NCBI GenBank assembly: GCA_000004695.1
Contig: CM000151.3
Coordinates: 5,760,001-5,824,000 of the forward strand
Direction of reading: 5' to 3'
DNA length: 64,000 bases
From: Dictyostelium discoideum
Lineage: Eukaryota
A program made the position numbers and the translations under genes. The notes beneath the pieces were generated by a model. The model saw nothing but the letters and a program-made list of their open reading frames with translations, searched no databases and had not been told where the DNA came from. Positions 8,976-64,000 of the stretch are shown piece by piece (within the stretch, counting starts at the first letter, position 1; each line of letters starts with the position of its first letter).

Positions 8976-9966
8976 GTTAAAAGAAATTTATACATTACTT
9001 TATGAAAATTATGTTGAAGATGATGATAATATGTTTAGATTTGATTATTCACCAGAGTTTTTAAAGTGGGCATTACAACCACCAGGATTTTTAAAGGAAT
9101 GGCATATTGGTGTTAGAGTTGTTGAATCAAAGAAATTGGTAGGATTTATTTCAGGTATTCCAGCAACTATTAGGGTAGAGGGTAAACCAATTACAATGGT
9201 AGAGATCAACTTTTTATGTGTTCACAAAAAGTTAAGAGAGAAACGTTTAGCACCAGTACTTATCAAAGAGGTGACAAGAAGAGTTAATCTTAGAAACATT
9301 TGGCAAGCCGCCTATACAGCTGGTGTAGTGTTACCAAAACCAGTTGCAATTTGTAAATATTGGCATAGATCAATTAAGCAACAGAAACTCGTTGAGGTTG
9401 GGTTCAGTGCGATACCACCAAAGATGACTATGGCATCCATGGTGAAATTGTATCGTATCAATGATGAAATGAAACATCCATTACGTCCATTGACCAAAGA
9501 GGACGTACCATCATTCAAGGTGTTATTGGACGACTACTTGTCGAAATATAAAATCGCACCAGAGTTCACCACTGATGAAGACGTTTGGCATTGGTTTGAG
9601 ACTAGAAAGGACGTTATCACTTGCTATGTAAAGGTTGACGAGTCCACTAAAAAAGTCACTGATGCTTTCTCATTCTACAATTTACCATCAACCATCATTG
9701 GTAATGCAAAACATAATACCCTCAAAGCAGCATTCTCCTTCTATAATGTAGCCACAACTATGTCAATCACTGATTTGGTTGGTGACGCACTTGTCACTGC
9801 AAAGAAAATGGATTATGATGTCTTCAATTGTTTAGATGTTTTCGAAAATTCAACTTTCTTTAAAGATTTGAAATTTGCGGTTGGTGATGGTGATCTTCAA
9901 TATTATTTATACAATTATTCAACTCCAACTAAAAAATCATCTGAAATTGGTTTAGTTTTGTTATAA
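8614..9966 (+). CDS. nmt: Glycylpeptide N-tetradecanoyltransferase (N-myristoyltransferase). It has two exons, join(8614..8865, 8977..9966), 413 aa.
   Basis: The KGHEFWDTQPV motif is present. The junction reads ...ELDCNKPEE (donor GTAAGT at 8866), then a T-run intron ending AATAG at 8976, then LKEIYTLLYENYVEDDDNMFRFDYSPEFLKWAL, which matches the conserved NMT region. The C-terminal half covers the whole NMT fold and ends ...GLVLL. Confidence 0.9.
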
Positions 9967-12750: not shown

Positions 12751-14334
<1,584 letters not shown>

Positions 14335-48488: not shown

Positions 48489-53651
<5,163 letters not shown>

Positions 53652-54126
53652 ATTTATAATATAAAAAAAAAAAATAAAAAATAAAAAAAATAAAAAATAA
53701 AAAAATTAATATAAAATAAACAAAAGAATTATTTAAATTTAACACAACTACCAATTAATAATAATATTATTGTTGGTGAAGTCAATAATAATAATAAATT
53801 TTTTAGTAATAATAATAATAATATTATAGTAATAATAATACCTTATTAAATTTTAATAATAAATATAATTTAATTTCAAATAAAAATTATTTTAAAAATA
53901 ATAATTTTTTAAATAATAGAAATTATGGTAAAACAACACCATTCGGAAATCCATCTTTTTCGGATATAATTAAAGATAGTAATTTTTTATTATTAAAAAA
54001 AGATTATGATGATTATTTCCATTTAATTAAAACAAATATTGGTTTAAAATTATTTTAAAGAATGTTTATATTACAACTGCAATTGCATTCACTGGTACAA
54101 TTTTATCAGGTTTAATATTTTCCCAA

Positions 54127-54840
54127 TTGATGATCGGTAGTCCACAATCGTTGCCAACTGCACTGGGATTGGGAGTTGGTGGATCAATGTTGTCCTTAAT
54201 ACTTTGCAATATGCAACAACCTACATATACAACTTATGACACCATTTGGGATGGTCCATTGGATAATAGTGTAAAGAAACCAATTTTAAAAAGTGTTGAT
54301 AAAAGTGGTAAAAGTGTAATAGAGTTTGAAGAATTCAGTAAATCGGTTATACCAATTACAGTTGCCAATTATTCAACGTTACATAAAATGGCATTCGTTT
54401 CATTTTGTGTATTCAATGGAATTTCACTATCACCCACTTTCGGATTACTACCAGTATCTACATTTTTGGGGGTCGCAGCTTTAAGTGTATTCGTTACTGG
54501 TGGTAGTGTTTTTGCTGCATTAAAGATGAAACCTGATAGTTTAACCAAATATAAACCAATACTCTATGGTAGCTTGTTTGGTCTTTTCGGATTGGGTTTG
54601 GTTTCAATTGGTACTTCAATAATGATGGGTGAGAATACTTTCACCCGTTTCGCTCAAGAGTTTGATCTCTATTTTGGTCTTGCTTTATTCACTGGTTTAA
54701 CTGCTTTAGATACTCACAATGCTGTCAAAACTTTTCAAGAGGGTAAACCAGATTACATTAGAGTTTCAATTGATCTATTTTTAGATATTTTAAATATTTT
54801 TGTTAGACTTTTAAGAGCTAGAAGTAATAGCAATAAGTAA
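54127..54840 (+). CDS. GHITM/MICS1-like TMBIM (Bax-inhibitor-1 family) membrane protein. The major exon is reported here, and the N-terminus is unresolved. A plausible full model is join(53925..53927, 54061..54840), 260 aa.
   Basis: The C-terminal signature is FTGLTALDTHNAVKTFQEGKPDYIRVSIDLFLDILNIFVRLLRA, which corresponds to GHITM's LTLYDTQ...DPI...IYLDTLNIFMR. The open frame extends upstream of the track ORF as NVYITTAIAFTGTILSGLIFSQL, a TM helix, up to an acceptor TTTTAAAG at 54060. The only upstream ATG that fits is 53925-53927, which is immediately followed by GTAAAA, giving an ATG|GT start-codon intron. Confidence 0.65.
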   Translation: MMIGSPQSLPTALGLGVGGSMLSLILCNMQQPTYTTYDTIWDGPLDNSVKKPILKSVDKSGKSVIEFEEFSKSVIPITVANYSTLHKMAFVSFCVFNGISLSPTFGLLPVSTFLGVAALSVFVTGGSVFAALKMKPDSLTKYKPILYGSLFGLFGLGLVSIGTSIMMGENTFTRFAQEFDLYFGLALFTGLTALDTHNAVKTFQEGKPDYIRVSIDLFLDILNIFVRLLRARSNSNK

Positions 54841-54841
54841 A

Positions 54842-54898
<57 letters not shown>

Positions 54899-55543
54899 GT
54901 GGATAAAAAAAAAAAAAAAAAAAAAAGAAATAAAAAATATGGTATTAAAATTTGTAAATAAATAAATAAAGTTGTTATTAAATTTAATCAAATAACAAAT
55001 TTTATGGAAGAAGATATTTTCCAATTTTTTAGAAAACAAACAAAAAAAAAAAAAATAAAAAAAAAAAAAATATTATTTGAAAATCTGGCAAACGATCGAA
55101 TGTCAAAAATTGTTGGATATTATTTTATAAAAATCTGAAACCTATTTTAAAAATTTTTTATCTTGGTTTAATTTAAATAATGTTTTGAATTGGTTTTATT
55201 AAAAAAAAAATTATTTTTTATTTTCAAAAGTTATATATAATTTTTTTTTTTTTGTTTTAAAATGATTATTTTAAAAAGTTTTGTTTTTTTTTATTTTTTT
55301 ATTTTTTTATAAATATTAAAATTTAAAGAAATTATCATGTGATTATTTTAAAATTCAATCAAAATAAAAGATATTATTTTTTAAAAATATCTTTTTCGCC
55401 AAAAAAAAAAAAAAAACCGTCGTTTGTGTAAAAAATTGAAAACGGACCTTATTTTTTTTAAAAAAAAAAAAAAAAAAAAAAAGCATTTAATACATTTCGA
55501 TAAAATTCAAAATCAAAAAAAAAAGTTACCTTTTTAACAAAAA

Positions 55544-58897
<3,354 letters not shown>

Positions 58898-59252
58898 AAG
58901 AGATTATTTTAAATCAATTCTGTTGTATTATTATTGTTTTTTACTTCCAAAAAAAAAAAAAAAAAAAAAAAATTTGATCAAAATGATTATAATAAAAACC
59001 GCAGGGGTTATTTTTAAAAATAATTTGAAACAATTCAGTGATTTCATTTTATTATTATTTTTTTTTTTTTCTTATTTTTTTTTTGTTGGTTTTTTTTTTT
59101 TTAATAATTTTGTAAAATAAAAATAACTCTTAAAAATTACATGTTCTATTATTATTTTAAAATTTGTAAATAAATAAATAAATAAATAAAAAAAAAAAAA
59201 AAAAATAAATAAATAAATAAAAATAAATAAATAAAAAAAATTATACAATAAC

Positions 59253-59399
<147 letters not shown>

Positions 59400-59465
59400 G
59401 TTATTAAAAGAAGTAATCACATCTTTAAAAATGATTTCCATTCTATTAATAAAGAAATTGATTCA

Positions 59466-59678
59466 ATGAAAGAAAATAATGAAAAAAAAGAGGATAAAAT
59501 TTTTCAAGAAATTAAAAAATTAAAATTAGAAATGGAATTATTAAGAAAGGATAATTTATCATTTAAAACAACAATACAATCTCTATCAGATTCTATAAAT
59601 AGTTTGTCAAGTGTTGAATCAAAATATGATTCTGACATTTATTACAATGACGATGAATATTCAACTATCTACTTGTAA
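59466..59678 (+). CDS. Hypothetical 70-aa coiled-coil ORF.
   Basis: It starts at an ATG directly downstream of an (AAT)n microsatellite and reads MKENNEKKEDKIFQEIKKLKLEMELLRKDNLSF.... It has a heptad-like pattern. The frame is also open upstream through the AAT repeat without an ATG. No recognisable family was found, so it may be non-coding. Confidence 0.25.
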   Translation: MKENNEKKEDKIFQEIKKLKLEMELLRKDNLSFKTTIQSLSDSINSLSSVESKYDSDIYYNDDEYSTIYL

Positions 59679-59999
59679 AAATAAAAATAAAATTGTATAA
59701 ATAAAAATAAAAATATAATTGTATAAATAAATAATGTAAATAAAAATAAAAAAATAAAAAATTTAAACTTTAAATGAAAACTTTAACTTTATTTTATTTA
59801 ATTTTTTGTCTCTAATTTTCTAATCTTGGATACCTTTATTTAAATTATAAAAATTATAAACTATTTAAATTTTGAGAAATTAAAAAAAAAAAAAAAAAGG
59901 GTTAAAATTTTAAGTTACCTTAATTAAATGAAAATAATAAAAAAACATTAATAATGATAGAGATTAATTTTTATTGAAAAATATAATATTGAATTATTA

Positions 60000-61284
60000 T
60001 TTAGTTGGAAGTTGTTGAAATTTTTTTGAGGAGGTAGACTATTAGGGTATGTTAATAAATCATTAAATCCCATATGTGTAATTTATTTTGTAACATACAC
60101 TGCACAATATTATTGAGCATCATTGCAATAATATTCAAAAAAAAGGTTATCCAACGGTAACGGCCTGAGGGTATTCGATAAATATTTCTATTCTTGATGT
60201 CCATAGAATTTCTATAAAGTAAATATACAACAGGAGTTATATGAACTATAAGAGTATATGCAGAAAAAAACCTGGAGCATCATTTTTTCACATTTAAAAT
60301 TGGATTGACCAATGAATCTTTACCATATGAATATACACCCACAATATTTGTGGAACCCTGTCTTTAAGAATTGAGGAATTTCTTTTTAAAATGTTTTAAA
60401 TCGATTTCTGAAATATAGTTGGTAATTTCTTTATCATTTCTCTTTCTAATTCTCTTAAAAAAATTAATAAACTTATAAATATTAATAAAAAGAGATGTTT
60501 AATCTGGGAATATGCTTTCATTTCCCCGAATTCAGATCCTGGTTGATCAACCTTACTAAAAGAAGATACAACAATACTATCAAGTGAAATTCCTGGATCT
60601 TGACTATTTCTTTACGTTGGGCAGTACCTAAAGCTCAACTCGAAATTGAAAGACGATACCAAGGGAACCACTAGAGCAGAGTACTTGGGTAAATTTGGTT
60701 AATTGAACGGTTTCTGTAGCTGTGTTCATTTTATACGAAAAAGAGAAAAAGGGTTTGTAAGATTTAGAATTATAATTGAAATCCAAAGAGAAAAAACTTC
60801 TTTTTGCTGAAATAGTCAGTGGGCATGTTACAATTTTGATAAATTGTCACAGATGGAAACTCTAAGTTTTAATGAAATGTTGTATTACACACTTAACAGT
60901 CATTTCTTTTTTCTCCTTGACTTCGAACCTGTGATCTTATTTTTTTTAAAGACGAAAAGGACAGACCCCTCAGGGAGTTGAACCCTGGACCAACTGCTAA
61001 CTTCTAACGTTTTGGAGACAATTACAATAAACCACTATGCTAAGGAGTCTTTGAAAAATAACGGAATGAAACACTTTGCTAAGCAGCCATTTTATACACA
61101 AGCGGTTATAAAAACATTAAGAATCAAATCAAAGCAACGGCCAGAAGAACAAAATAAATTAGACTCACTAATCTCGCTAAAGCTATTACAATTTAGCAGA
61201 CAATGGAACTCACCTCTTCACGCAATAGAACTTCCTAAACATCTCAAAAAATACAATAATTCACTCAGTACTTTCTATAAATAA

Positions 61285-61358
<74 letters not shown>

Positions 61359-61797
61359 GGAACCAAGTTAATCAGAAAATTTCCAGATTTTTAACTTTTT
61401 AAAGTAAAATAAAAAAATAGAAAGAAAAAAAGATGAAAATTACAAACAACACCACAAATATTAAGCAACACAAATGCCTACAAAAAATAAGTGAAATTGT
61501 GGATAAAACTCAAACAAAAAAAAAACAATTCAAATATGTCATCAACATCAATCATTAAGCTGATGATAAAATAAAAAAAGATTTGGAAAAAAATTTGGAC
61601 AAAAAAGATGTTTTAATCAAAAGTAATAATACAATTCAAAATTCCAAACAAAAAAAAAAAAAAAAAAAAGTAAACTACACAACCCCTCTTTTAGAGACCC
61701 TGTAAAAAAAAAAAACTAAAAATAAAATGAGATTTAGCATCTCAAGCAGAAGCAACTAATAATTGCCTTATCCAATTCAAAAAAAAAAGAGCCATTT

Positions 61798-61841
<44 letters not shown>

Positions 61842-62450
61842 ATACAACCTTAAAAGGCACCTGTAATATTTAATAATAAAATGAGATATCTCAAGAATAA
61901 GCAACTAAAAATTGCGTTATTCCATTCTAAAAAAAACGGAGCCATTTTTTGGAGAAAATTACAAGAAACCACTATGCTAAGTTGTCATCGAAAAATAAGT
62001 GGGTGAAACACTATGCTAAGGAGTCATCGAAAAACCAAATGGGTGAATTTCAAGTGAAAAATGAGATCGAAAAAAACAACCAACAACAATCCTTTTTTTG
62101 ATTTTTTCATTTTTCATATAGAAAGACTTAAAAAAAAACCTGGAATCAAGTTAAAAATCTGGTAATTTTCTGATTAACTTTTTAAAGTAAAATAAAAAAA
62201 ATTAAAAAAAAATAAAATGAAAATTACAAACAACACCAAATATTAAGCAATACAAATGCATACAAAAAATAAGCGCAATTGTGGACAAAACACAAATAAA
62301 AAAACAATTCAAATATGTCATCAACCTGATGTTTTATAACAATCAAAGCCTGTTAAATTAAAAAAAACTATAAATAAAATGAGAACAAGTTACAATTCAT
62401 TTTATAACTAAAATACAACTAAAATACAACTTAAATACAAATAAAATGCA
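60000..62450. mobile_element. Decayed, non-autonomous retroelement-like repeat complex. It is compositionally distinct (GC-richer, no long homopolymers), lacks a long ORF, and is internally repetitive.
   Basis: Three diverged copies of a unit beginning AAAAACCTGGRANCAAG occur at about 60262, 61345 and 62132. The latter two extend more than 200 bp with about 80-85% identity (...tttttaaagtaaaataaaaaaa...gaaaattacaaacaacacc...atattaagcaa.acaaatgc.tacaaaaaataag.g.aattgtgga.aaaac.caaa...caattcaaatatgtcatcaac...). A second family containing 'aaccactatgctaagg' and 'gtgaaacactatgctaaggagtcatcgaaaaa' occurs at 61032, 61966 and 62005. A third family has 'aaaatgagat...atctcaagc/aagaa..agcaactaa.aattgc.ttat.ccattc.aaaaaaaa..gagccattttttt' at 61727 and 61870. 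One segment ends TAA + A(65) at 61285-61353, which is a retro-type poly(A) tail. A tRNA-like 3' half is adjacent. All of this is consistent with fragments of tRNA-gene-targeted non-LTR retrotransposon modules (TRE-like). The identity assignment is tentative. Confidence 0.45.
60950..61000 (-). other. tRNA-like 3' half (T-arm plus acceptor 3' strand) followed by a T4 pol III-type terminator. This is probably a truncated tRNA pseudogene or a retroelement target remnant.
   Basis: The minus strand reads ...GCAGTTGGTC-CAGGG-TTCAACT-CCCTG-AGGGGTC-T-GTCCTTTTCG. That gives a 5-bp T-stem with a 7-nt TTCAACT loop (T-psi-C-R-A-N-Y pattern), a 7-nt acceptor 3' strand, a discriminator base, then TTTT. A possible 5' acceptor strand GACTCCT, which would pair with one G-U, lies 66 nt upstream. 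No acceptable D-arm or anticodon arm can be folded, so this is not a complete tRNA. Confidence 0.3.
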
Positions 62451-62784
62451 AACTACATAAAAAAAAAAAATCCAGCCAAAAACTTTGATTCTAAGGTTTC
62501 GTAACCATTTTTTGAATATATGCCTCTTCCAATTGTCAATAATTTAATAAAATTTTAGAAAAAAAAAAAAAATATTTTTTTATTATATACACCACTGAGA
62601 TTGGTCAAATTTATTTACTATTTATATTATATTTATTTATTAAAATTATTTATACATTAAAAATTAAATAACAATTTTGTTATCTTTTTTTTCTTTTTTC
62701 TTTTTTTTCTTTTTTCTTTTTTTTTTTTTTGATATATACCACCAACACTAGACATCTATTTAATTGATTTAATGTTTTTGTTTT

Positions 62785-62885: not shown

Positions 62886-63974
62886 CTAAATTTTTAATAA
62901 ATTTGGTAAATTACCATATTTATCCAATTTTTTACCCCAATTTTCCAATATTTTAGCGACAGTTCCTTTACCCAATTGATCGAAAGGAGGAACGATGAAA
63001 AGTTTAAGGATTTCAGTGATATTATCCATGATTGAAAGTTCTCTATCATTCTGATCTCCACGATGACCTCTTCCAGGTTTGTTTTTGGCACGAAGATGAC
63101 CCATAAAAAGGAAAGCAGTTTTTGGGTCAACCATTTTCAAGAGACCACTAATTAACAAATGAAGACAAGGAGTACCATCAATGAGTACTCTTTGACCTTG
63201 TTCATTACGTTTACATCTTCTAGAGTTTTCCATAGCATAGACTGGTATATGTTTTGGAGGATAATCATCTTGAGGCAATTGAGCCAAAATTCCAGCGAAA
63301 AATTTTCTAAATTGTAAAGCTCTTGCTTCATAATGTTTTTTCCAAGGACCGACGTCATCCTCCTCATCGAAACCATCATAGCAAGAATCTGGCAAGACAC
63401 TATTGGCATAAGTTAAAACCACGGCAGCATTTCTCCAAAGTTGTGGACCCAATTTCTCGGTGAATTGATTGATCACCAATTGATGAGCACCATCGAATCT
63501 TGTCTCTGTGAATTTCTCAACAAACAATACACAATGAATGGTTTTACCCGAGAGATATCTTTGAATTTTGATCATATTATTTGAATCGACCAACTCACCT
63601 TGTGAATCTAAAAAACCTGGTGTATCAATGATATTCAATTTGAATCCATTCACAACTCTACTATAGGTGAATGGATCTTGTGTGCATGATTCTGAGGAAT
63701 GTACGGGTATGTCAATGCCAAACACCGTATTCAATGTCGATGATTTACCAACACCAGTTCTACCCAATAATAGAACGTTACATTCATTTTGAACACCTTT
63801 TAATACTGCCAACATCTCTTGAAGCTCTTCAGTTGTCTCTTTTTCAATGGTTGCTCCATCGACACCTGGTTCCTCAAGTATTGATAAAAATGGATCATAA
63901 TCTTCTCCAATCTCTGATACATCCTCTGCTGTCATTGATGCATCTGTTGCTGTTTGTGTTTGTGTATTGGTCAT
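62886..63974 (-). CDS. AIG1/Toc34-type (GIMAP/IAN-like, paraseptin) GTPase. It is a single exon, 362 aa.
   Basis: G1 is NVLLLGRTGVGKSSTLNTVFG. G2/switch I has the form ...TQDPF.YSR. G3 is LNIIDTPGF. This is the Toc34/AIG1 pattern, with conserved hydrophobic blocks after G3. ATG 63974 is preceded by non-homopolymer sequence. The gene has visibly higher GC than its neighbours. Confidence 0.8.
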   Translation of the reverse strand: MTNTQTQTATDASMTAEDVSEIGEDYDPFLSILEEPGVDGATIEKETTEELQEMLAVLKGVQNECNVLLLGRTGVGKSSTLNTVFGIDIPVHSSESCTQDPFTYSRVVNGFKLNIIDTPGFLDSQGELVDSNNMIKIQRYLSGKTIHCVLFVEKFTETRFDGAHQLVINQFTEKLGPQLWRNAAVVLTYANSVLPDSCYDGFDEEDDVGPWKKHYEARALQFRKFFAGILAQLPQDDYPPKHIPVYAMENSRRCKRNEQGQRVLIDGTPCLHLLISGLLKMVDPKTAFLFMGHLRAKNKPGRGHRGDQNDRELSIMDNITEILKLFIVPPFDQLGKGTVAKILENWGKKLDKYGNLPNLLKI

Positions 63975-64000
63975 TGATTGTGTTATCTCTGATAATGATG

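Follow-up and report, generated by a model that had tools for sequence, protein, structure and literature searches.

A Toc34-like AIG1-family GTPase of Dictyostelium discoideum, strongly conserved among dictyostelids and possibly akin to giant-virus proteins

The stretch of DNA analysed here, called the window throughout, comprises 64,000 nucleotides of Dictyostelium discoideum (contig CM000151.3, positions 5,760,001 to 5,824,000 of the forward strand, assembly GCA_000004695.1), and its right-hand end carries, on the minus strand, the larger part of a gene for a GTPase of the AIG1 family, which is the subject of this report. The open reading frame (ORF) of 362 amino acids at 62886-63974 that the original prediction took for the whole gene does exist, but the frame is still open 5′ of its ATG up to base 63998 (SLSEITQS-MTNTQ... 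in the translation of 62886-63998), and therefore this ATG is internal and the ORF incomplete. The ORF product is 100% identical to a D. discoideum protein of 449 amino acids (P0001, KAM9965015.1), in which the ATG at 63974 corresponds to Met88. The gene exceeds the window end: amino acids 80-449 are encoded within the window, while the remaining 211 nt of exon 2 lie outside it, as do the intron (79 nt) and exon 1 (24 nt). In a second D. discoideum assembly (locus L001) the full gene takes up 1429 nt and is composed of exon 1 (24 nt), a GT..AG intron (79 nt) and exon 2 (1326 nt). At the family level the gene is already covered by public annotation, where its orthologs are entered as "AIG1-type G domain-containing protein" or "GTP-binding protein"; AIG1-like genes of D. 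discoideum are mentioned in the literature (PMC12845241). The features of the gene within the window are as follows.

62886-64000, minus strand: partial coding sequence (CDS) of the TOC-like AIG1-family GTPase, the 3′ 1115 nt of exon 2, amino acids 80-449 and stop
63738-63764, minus strand: G1 or P-loop LLLGRTGVGKSSTLN (GRTGVGKSS), amino acids 71-79 of the ORF and 158-166 of the full-length protein
63672-63689, minus strand: switch I, SCTQDP, with the conserved Thr of G2 (T98, nearly invariant in alignment A3)
63612-63626, minus strand: G3 LNIIDTPGFLDS (DTPGF), followed by LDSQGE
63492-63539, minus strand: AIG1 "conserved box" IHCVLFVEKFTETRFD, between G3 and G4
63402-63416, minus strand: degenerate G4, LTYAN, aligned with LTHAQ of Toc34
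63231-63401, minus strand: long G4-to-G5 linker, with a G4-to-EN spacing of 61 residues
63138-63230, minus strand: TOC-type segment ENSRRCKRNEQGQRVLIDGTPCLHLLISGLL, a G5-like ENS with an extension, aligned to ENSGRCNKNDSDEKVLPNG of Toc34
62889-63119, minus strand: C-terminal tail, conserved across Dictyostelia and without a transmembrane segment (ortholog alignment, hydrophobicity scan)
62919-62969, minus strand: the most amphipathic helix of the protein, TVAKILENWGKKLDKYG, net charge +3, hydrophobic moment 0.62
62886-62888, minus strand: stop codon

Exon 1, which lies outside the window (L001 10001-10104), encodes the octapeptide MFNINPYK. All full-length dictyostelid orthologs retrieved begin with this octapeptide, after which comes an otherwise variable Ser/Lys-rich region, and it may represent some signal or a motif for modification.

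The signature of the AIG1 family is complete, with G1 (GxxxxGKS), G3 (DTPG) and the hydrophobic conserved box with its Arg. Both the G1 GRTGVGKSS and the G3 IIDTPGF that had been read from the nucleotide sequence at the outset are in place (63738-63764 and 63612-63626), and G71, G76 and K77 of the P-loop are invariant or nearly so among 150 relatives. Arg159 of the conserved box (R246 of the full-length protein, 63498-63500) is invariant in the 60-sequence alignment A3 and aligns with R133 of pea Toc34, an arginine finger with a dimerisation/catalytic role (HMMER against 3bb1_A/1h65_A); in this alignment the R of TETRFD stands opposite R133 of DAYRVD, and further along MENSRRCKRNEQGQRVLIDG pairs with IENSGRCNKNDSDEKVLPNG of pea Toc34. 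The stretch after G3 is two residues shorter in Toc34, though not in Toc159 and most giant-virus proteins. Outside the G domain, the N-terminus is serine-rich and disordered, and the AlphaFold2 monomer model (mean predicted local distance difference test, pLDDT, 79.5) places tail helices at 305-327 and 336-352, the second with low pLDDT (about 44-55).

The earlier assignment to the septin-related AIG1/GIMAP/Toc34 class holds, since the protein matches Pfam AIG1 (PF04548) with 73.9 bits (E=1.5e-20, cut-off 27) over profile positions 1-137 of 212. The best profiles are not those of EngA, Era or dynamin, which all score far lower, and MMR_HSR1, RsgA, dynamin and septin are weak partial matches in Pfam. 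Among the NCBIfam models the two highest are TIGR00991 (Toc34, 121.8 bits) and TIGR00993 (Toc159, 74.9 bits), both far below their curated cut-offs, and the Era, EngA and MnmE models reach at most 35 bits; the match to TIGR00991 spans profile positions 19-242 of 313 and leaves the tail-anchor part unmatched. Searched against the PDB by sequence, the protein finds pea Toc34 at E=4e-26 over amino acids 45-292, Arabidopsis Toc33 at about 1e-21 and Chlamydomonas Toc34 at 2e-17, with Toc120/90 also among the leading matches, whereas GIMAP5 and GIMAP7 appear at 4e-6 and 1.5e-5 only. The fold gives the same order: the top 15 Foldseek matches of the model in the PDB are all Toc34/Toc33 (E 3e-14 to 2e-11, target template-modelling (TM) score 0.66-0.71), and GIMAP7, 2, 5 and 1 rank after them (E 2e-9 to 8e-8, target TM 0.43-0.60).

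The TOC-type character is most evident in the segment that follows G5, for which the spacing from EN to DG, the conserved-box Arg and the linker length were recorded in 239 relatives. The EN-to-DG spacing is 17 in the dictyostelid proteins, in the metagenomic relative P0009, in Toc34, in Toc159 and in a viral clade described below, and 16 in P0126, like P0009 an unplaced metagenomic relative, while it is 8 in 110 mostly bacterial sequences and in 70 GIMAP-like and other sequences. The ENSxRC...VLxDG segment thus exceeds that of bacterial and GIMAP-like relatives by 9 residues. The EN motif begins with E in the four TOC-like groups, and most of the other sequences have D at its first position. 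The spacing from G4 to EN amounts to 61 residues in the D. discoideum protein, approximately 59 in the giant-virus clade and P0126, 49 in Toc159, 46 in Toc34 and 43 in bacterial relatives. The Arg of the conserved box is kept in the dictyostelid proteins, P0009, P0126, Toc34 and bacteria, substituted in Toc159 and deleted in the viral clade. Bacterial AIG1-like GTPases share with the D. discoideum protein the GRTGVGKSS-type P-loop, the ETR arginine box and the overall G domain, but they have DN instead of EN, an 8-residue segment after G5 and a short linker. Judged by these sequence characters, the GTPase stands on the Toc34/Toc159 side of the AIG1 family and not on the GIMAP/IAN side.

It is nevertheless not a Toc34. 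Toc34 and Toc33 are its best match by sequence (E about 4e-26) and by fold (target TM about 0.7), and they share with it G1, G3, the degenerate G4 (T-H/Y-A-Q/N), the ENSxRC...VLxxG segment with its 17-residue spacing and the Arg that is aligned with R133. On the other hand, the D. discoideum protein is longer than these by 15 residues in the G4-G5 linker and by two residues after G3, its N-terminus is rich in serine, its conserved C-terminal tail is a different one, and it has no C-terminal transmembrane anchor: the maximum Kyte-Doolittle hydropathy over 19 residues after the G domain is 1.16 (0.78-1.16 in the orthologs), in comparison to 1.5-2.3 in Toc34s. Its 121.8 bits against TIGR00991 compare with 229-328 for algal Toc34s and with a cut-off of 421.55, and in the quartet analysis given below it falls outside the group of Toc34 and Toc159. 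From the Toc159/132/120 proteins, whose TOC-type G domain likewise has an EN(H/S)xxC..N..G..VLPNG segment, it differs in that these are 1100-1460 amino acids long with acidic and membrane-anchoring (A and M) domains, have the arginine finger position substituted and show a lower hhalign similarity (195).

The gene was originally pictured as a fast-evolving accessory or immune gene, and this view is refuted by its evolutionary rate. Over the 370 codons shared by the window and L001 there are 23 differences, all of them synonymous and in the third position, and none non-synonymous. Identity across Dictyostelia is 83-92%, with 92, 86, 84 and 84% to D. purpureum, Tieghemostelium, Cavenderia and Acytostelium, respectively, whereas RPA1, the largest subunit of RNA polymerase I encoded by the neighbouring gene (49296-53651), shows 81, 70, 66 and 60% to the same species in the same order. 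For orientation, the split of D. discoideum and D. purpureum has been put at about 400 million years ago, and subunits of protein kinase A are 65% and 79% identical between the two species (Sucgang et al., PMC3188802). By these comparisons, the GTPase gene ranks among the slowest-evolving of the region. The searches returned one sequence cluster per dictyostelid species sampled and two in Acytostelium. The two copies of Acytostelium subglobosum are P0006 and P0008, with 84% and 83% identity to the query.

Taken together, the gene probably encodes a 449-residue cytosolic "paraseptin" GTPase of the AIG1/Toc34 type, with a TOC-type G domain conserved in all Dictyostelia sampled, that is activated by dimerisation, coupled to a membrane or a partner and constitutive in its role. 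By analogy with Toc34/Toc33 and GIMAPs, activation would occur by nucleotide-dependent dimerisation: two GTP-bound G domains may pair across their nucleotide pockets, so that R246 enters the site of the partner molecule. Arginine fingers have been described as a general paraseptin feature, and septins were not found in Amoebozoa (bioRxiv 10.1101/2024.03.25.586683). The two ends of the protein, namely the amphipathic helix at the C-terminus and the tail at the N-terminus, could then couple the GTPase cycle to a membrane surface or to a partner protein, with peripheral membrane binding taking the place of the Toc34 tail anchor. The strong purifying selection and the single copy would indicate a constitutive cellular role rather than a variable role in defence, and conservation this extreme predicts an important cellular function. 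To our knowledge dictyostelids have no plastid, and therefore the role cannot be plastid import.

Several points weigh against this picture. That the protein dimerises, hydrolyses GTP and binds membranes is deduced from homologs about 30% identical to it and from a model of the monomer, in which the pLDDT of the C-terminal tail is low (44-68). G4 is degenerate, so that the nucleotide specificity is assumed from Toc34. Literature searches on Dictyostelium AIG1/Toc34-type GTPases returned generic mentions only, with no experiment or expression data for this GTPase, and a protein so strongly conserved could still have a conserved role in the interaction of host and microbe.

Where could a TOC-type GTPase of a plastid-less amoeba come from? 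In the indexed search the orthologs of D. purpureum (92%), Tieghemostelium (86%), Acytostelium (84% and 83%, two genes) and Cavenderia (84%) are followed by P0009, a metagenomic protein of 341 amino acids with about 50% identity (48% here and 52% with phmmer), and then by bacterial, largely cyanobacterial, GTPases with 32-41% identity over 35-60% of the query. Outside Dictyostelia, an exhaustive phmmer search over 1.84 billion representatives gave P0009 (52%) as the sole relative with more than 40% identity. RPA1 matches other Amoebozoa at 44-48%, while the more constrained GTPase matches no named ones, which hints that it was either lost in other Amoebozoa or gained in the dictyostelid stem. 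P0009, the only close relative that is not dictyostelid, retains the arginine finger, has DNSRRC and is without the serine-rich N-terminus; it fills a contig of 1095 nt (L008, JGI 3300030741) with 36% GC and a 61-nt leader, which looks like a transcript of an unsampled eukaryote.

Among the relatives that are full-length and extend to the ENS motif, three groups can be distinguished: Toc34-type proteins (including those of Mesostigma and Pyramimonas), long Toc159-type proteins and a K/N-rich clade of 420-540 amino acids. The members of this last clade are encoded on dense, intronless, ORFan-rich contigs together with RING, ankyrin, Band_7, kinase and glycosyltransferase genes, the profile of the clade matches three IMG/VR GVMAG giant-virus contigs (L004-L006), and the best structural match of the D. 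discoideum model in BFVD is an "AIG1 family protein [Pithovirus LCPAC304]" (A0A481ZA37, E=6e-15); because of the GVMAG contigs, the BFVD match and the gene context the clade is regarded as viral. In size and architecture its proteins resemble the dictyostelid one, with an N-terminal extension, a G domain and a tail of 60-100 amino acids that mostly has no clear transmembrane segment. Both have the long G4-G5 linker (61 and 59), DS(Q/R)GE after G3, L.DGTP and ENSRR, and the viral APIxFL motif resembles TAFLF. They differ in that the viral proteins are only about 28-33% identical to it, have lost the arginine finger and carry a GPSQVGKT-type P-loop. On a giant-virus-like contig from beach sand the gene for the TOC-like GTPase adjoins two Band_7 (stomatin/prohibitin-like) genes (L002 6137-9554, L003 1091-1852), neighbours that may point to a membrane-microdomain function of the viral homologs.

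The placement was addressed by distance methods, that is neighbour-joining (NJ) bootstrap, quartets and Dayhoff-6 recoding, together with hhalign and indel signatures. In the NJ bootstrap the viral clade is sister of the dictyostelid proteins with P0009 in 61% (Kimura) and 54% (scoredist) of replicates, and Toc34 in 9-11%. Quartets join the dictyostelid and viral proteins in 65-68%, against 25-29% for dictyostelid with Toc34; after Dayhoff-6 recoding the figures are 47-52% against 35-43%. Toc34 and Toc159 are placed together, apart from the dictyostelid proteins, in 70% of quartets (42% with Dayhoff-6). When the choice is between Toc34 and GIMAP-like or bacterial proteins, the dictyostelid proteins join Toc34 in 62%, and bacterial and dictyostelid proteins are paired in 2.5-10% with the viral clade as the alternative and in 17% against Toc34, the exception being 70% when Toc34 pairs with Toc159. 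The hhalign scores to the dictyostelid proteins are 298 for the viral clade, 281 for Toc34, 251 for bacteria and 252 for GIMAP-like proteins (over 153 columns only), and in BLASTP the Toc34 of Mesostigma (31%, E=3e-36) stands beside a GVMAG protein (28%, E=5e-29). The best-supported topology, with moderate support and not robust, would accordingly group dictyostelid with viral proteins and Toc34 with Toc159.

An explanation of the origin that is compatible with the proposed mechanism, and that may be entertained tentatively, is that the GTPase belongs to a non-plastid TOC-like lineage shared with Nucleocytoviricota, which either the dictyostelid ancestor acquired from a virus or viruses captured from an amoebozoan host. 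It is in line with the relatives on GVMAG contigs and the Pithovirus match, with the NJ and quartet values and the common linker length and motifs, with the single metagenomic sequence above 40% identity outside Dictyostelia, and with the less conserved RPA1 still finding named Amoebozoa. Its support, however, is moderate and distance-based, and since the quartet margin shrinks upon Dayhoff-6 recoding, a shared AT-rich composition may contribute to the signal that joins dictyostelid and viral proteins. In addition, Mesostigma Toc34 is slightly closer pairwise, the hhalign scores are nearly equal, the viral proteins have no arginine finger, the GTPase gene is ordinary in GC content and carries an intron typical of Dictyostelium, and the transfer could have gone in either direction. 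At its widest this explanation would make the dictyostelid and giant-virus proteins a non-plastid sister lineage of the TOC receptor GTPases, in which a soluble dimerising form was exchanged between amoebae and giant viruses and became essential-looking and extremely constrained in the septin-less dictyostelids; this, too, is a possibility short of an even chance.

That Dictyostelium has an AIG1-family GTPase is already in the public annotation; its TOC-type character and probable kinship to giant-virus proteins are the less obvious part and a modest novelty. A plastid-less amoeba here shows characters that are otherwise confined to Toc34 and Toc159, receptors of the chloroplast, and giant viruses encode the remaining full-length relatives of its protein. 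Should the placement be true, the dictyostelid protein would offer an outgroup for the debated origin of TOC GTPases, a soluble TOC-like GTPase in a tractable model organism and a further case of gene sharing between amoebae and giant viruses; if the sister-lineage reading is true, the TOC-type G domain would not be a plastid-specific invention.

Considerably less probable is what the original prediction had proposed, namely that the gene encodes a GIMAP/IAN-like immune GTPase, fast-evolving at a transposon-rich edge and induced by bacteria. The protein is a member of the AIG1 family, and other members are tied to defence or virulence, such as plant IAN, vertebrate GIMAP and Entamoeba AIG1 (PMC5884625, PMC12845241); moreover, the stop codon is followed by repeat debris at a distance of 330 bp. 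GIMAP/IAN proteins belong to the same Pfam family, and they have the conserved box with Arg and C-terminal helices that are sometimes amphipathic, as in the D. discoideum protein. Yet their matches to it begin at E 4e-6, with target TM 0.43-0.60, about 153 aligned columns and an EN-to-DG spacing of 8 instead of 17, so that by sequence, fold and indel signatures the GTPase is nearer to TOC, and the immune-associated reading is not supported. GIMAP/IAN families are multi-copy, while the Dictyostelium gene is single-copy and highly constrained, and the evolutionary rate given above largely refutes the immune explanation. Another amoebozoan, Entamoeba histolytica, has a family of AIG1 GTPases as well (PMC5884625); by its published description this family is set apart as multi-copy and strain-variable, has been connected with adhesion and virulence and does not occur in Mastigamoeba, a free-living relative (PMC8136499). 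No Entamoeba protein was among the named relatives retrieved, and the two families were not compared directly. The remaining part of the immune explanation concerns the setting of the gene, for which the following features are relevant.

60962-61050, minus strand: tRNA-Trp(CCA) gene (ARAGORN; Rfam RF00005, 44.8 bits)
61053-62558, no strand assigned: non-coding A-rich repeat block, from the tRNA gene to the 3′ end of the GTPase gene (repeat comparison; no Pfam match on the longest ORF)
61285-61355 and 61804-61841: poly(A) runs of 70 nt and 38 nt in the block
61396-61525 and 62180-62307: repeat pair in the block
61947-62027: copy of the 5′ half of tRNA-Trp with its upstream flank, 84% identical to 61010-61090 and 937 bp from the intact gene

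In the 3′ direction the GTPase gene is thus followed by a T-rich tract, the A-rich non-coding block of 1.5 kb and tRNA-Trp(CCA). The 70-nt poly(A) run begins approximately 235 bp upstream of the tRNA gene, and both poly(A) runs lie between tRNA-Trp and its partial copy, which suggests duplication or retro-copying of tRNA-flanking sequence. The block is largely non-alignable to L001, where the spacer between gene and tRNA is about 750 bp shorter. All ORFs in 59.7-62.9 kb are of 90 amino acids or less, and in those long ORFs of the window that were scanned Pfam found no reverse transcriptase, endonuclease, integrase or gag domain. Non-LTR (long terminal repeat) retrotransposons of Dictyostelium, the TRE elements (TRE5/TRE3), insert beside tRNA genes, a habit with which the pattern of the block agrees, and poly(A)-ended fragments close to a tRNA gene, as seen here, are a TRE-type trait; the block is possibly debris of such tRNA-targeted non-LTR elements, unclassified. 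What had been called a retroelement graveyard, or transposon-like block, contains no retroelement ORF and consists of tRNA-Trp and poly(A)-ended non-coding repeats, for which the name graveyard is too strong. The edge position claimed for the GTPase gene is incidental and amounts to its closeness to a tRNA gene, whose presence explains the repeat debris. Rfam gave the tRNA as the sole above-threshold match on 59-64 kb. Two sub-threshold matches to C/D-box snoRNAs lie antisense within the GTPase CDS (62983-63061, plus strand; 28.3 and 25.9 bits); being below the cut-offs of 45 and 36 bits, they are most likely due to chance and were dismissed.

In GC content the gene reaches the upper end of what is normal for coding sequence, without being an outlier. 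Among 21 long ORFs of the window, which range over 16.8-36.5% GC and 6.6-31.4% GC at third codon positions (GC3), the GTPase ORF has the highest GC (36.5%) and the third-highest GC3 (25.6%); other ORFs reach 35.7, 35.2 and 34.2% GC and 31.4% and 27.0% GC3. The statement that the gene is noticeably richer in GC than its neighbours is thus weak. The higher GC at first codon positions is explained by the encoded part of the protein having no low-complexity N/Q/S tracts. A foreign origin on the grounds of GC was rejected.

Still less credible is that the GTPase is an algal or plastid relic, that is a true Toc34 received from a green alga by horizontal transfer and still serving as an import receptor of an organelle (e.g., mitochondria). 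The best named relatives are indeed Toc34s, including those of Mesostigma and Pyramimonas, the TOC-specific extension and the arginine finger are present, and other transfers from the green lineage to D. discoideum have been suggested (PMC3716720). This explanation is opposed by the score of 121.8 bits against TIGR00991, far from both algal Toc34s and the cut-off, with the tail-anchor part of the profile unmatched, by the missing transmembrane segment and the different length of the G4-G5 linker, and by the pairing of Toc34 with Toc159 without the dictyostelid proteins in 70% of quartets (42% after Dayhoff-6 recoding). Finally, the idea that the protein is a ribosome- or RNA-associated GTPase of the Era/EngA/MnmE type and was misread as AIG1 can be discarded with near certainty, as the weak secondary matches to MMR_HSR1, RsgA, EngA and Era that favour it are limited to the segment from P-loop to G3 with E of 1e-4 to 1e-6, and the profile scores, with AIG1 and Toc34 models at 1e-20 to 1e-35, already refute it.

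As to the rest of the window, Pfam names genes for an ABCG transporter, N-myristoyltransferase, PAP2, PTEN, DEAD-box helicase, proline dehydrogenase, YhhN, inositol monophosphatase, a SIR2_2-domain protein, P4-ATPase, KTI12, RPA1, Bax inhibitor-1 and an FG-GAP/EGF protein, and the remaining scanned ORFs have no match. The PTEN-type phosphatase (DSPc and PTEN_C2 domains, 12751-14334, minus strand) and N-myristoyltransferase (9031-9966, plus strand) are treated as ordinary landmarks. The ORF at 34199-35740 (plus strand, 513 amino acids, 21% GC) carries a SIR2_2 domain (PF13289, E=1e-12), which is unusual for an amoeba gene; this domain is best known from prokaryotic anti-phage systems.

A difference between assemblies was also observed. 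Approximately 6 kb of the window (53725-59736) are missing at the syntenic site of D. discoideum assembly GCA_054859355.1 (L001 13436-13500), where the tRNA-Trp region comes immediately after the gene for RNA polymerase I. The segment carries a Bax-inhibitor-1 gene (54127-54840), a multi-exon gene with FG-GAP/EGF repeats (55544-58897) and the end of another ORF. It was considered as a retrotransposon, which was rejected because Pfam finds ordinary genes in it (Bax inhibitor-1 and FG-GAP/EGF), and it represents either a gene presence/absence polymorphism or a difference in assembly.

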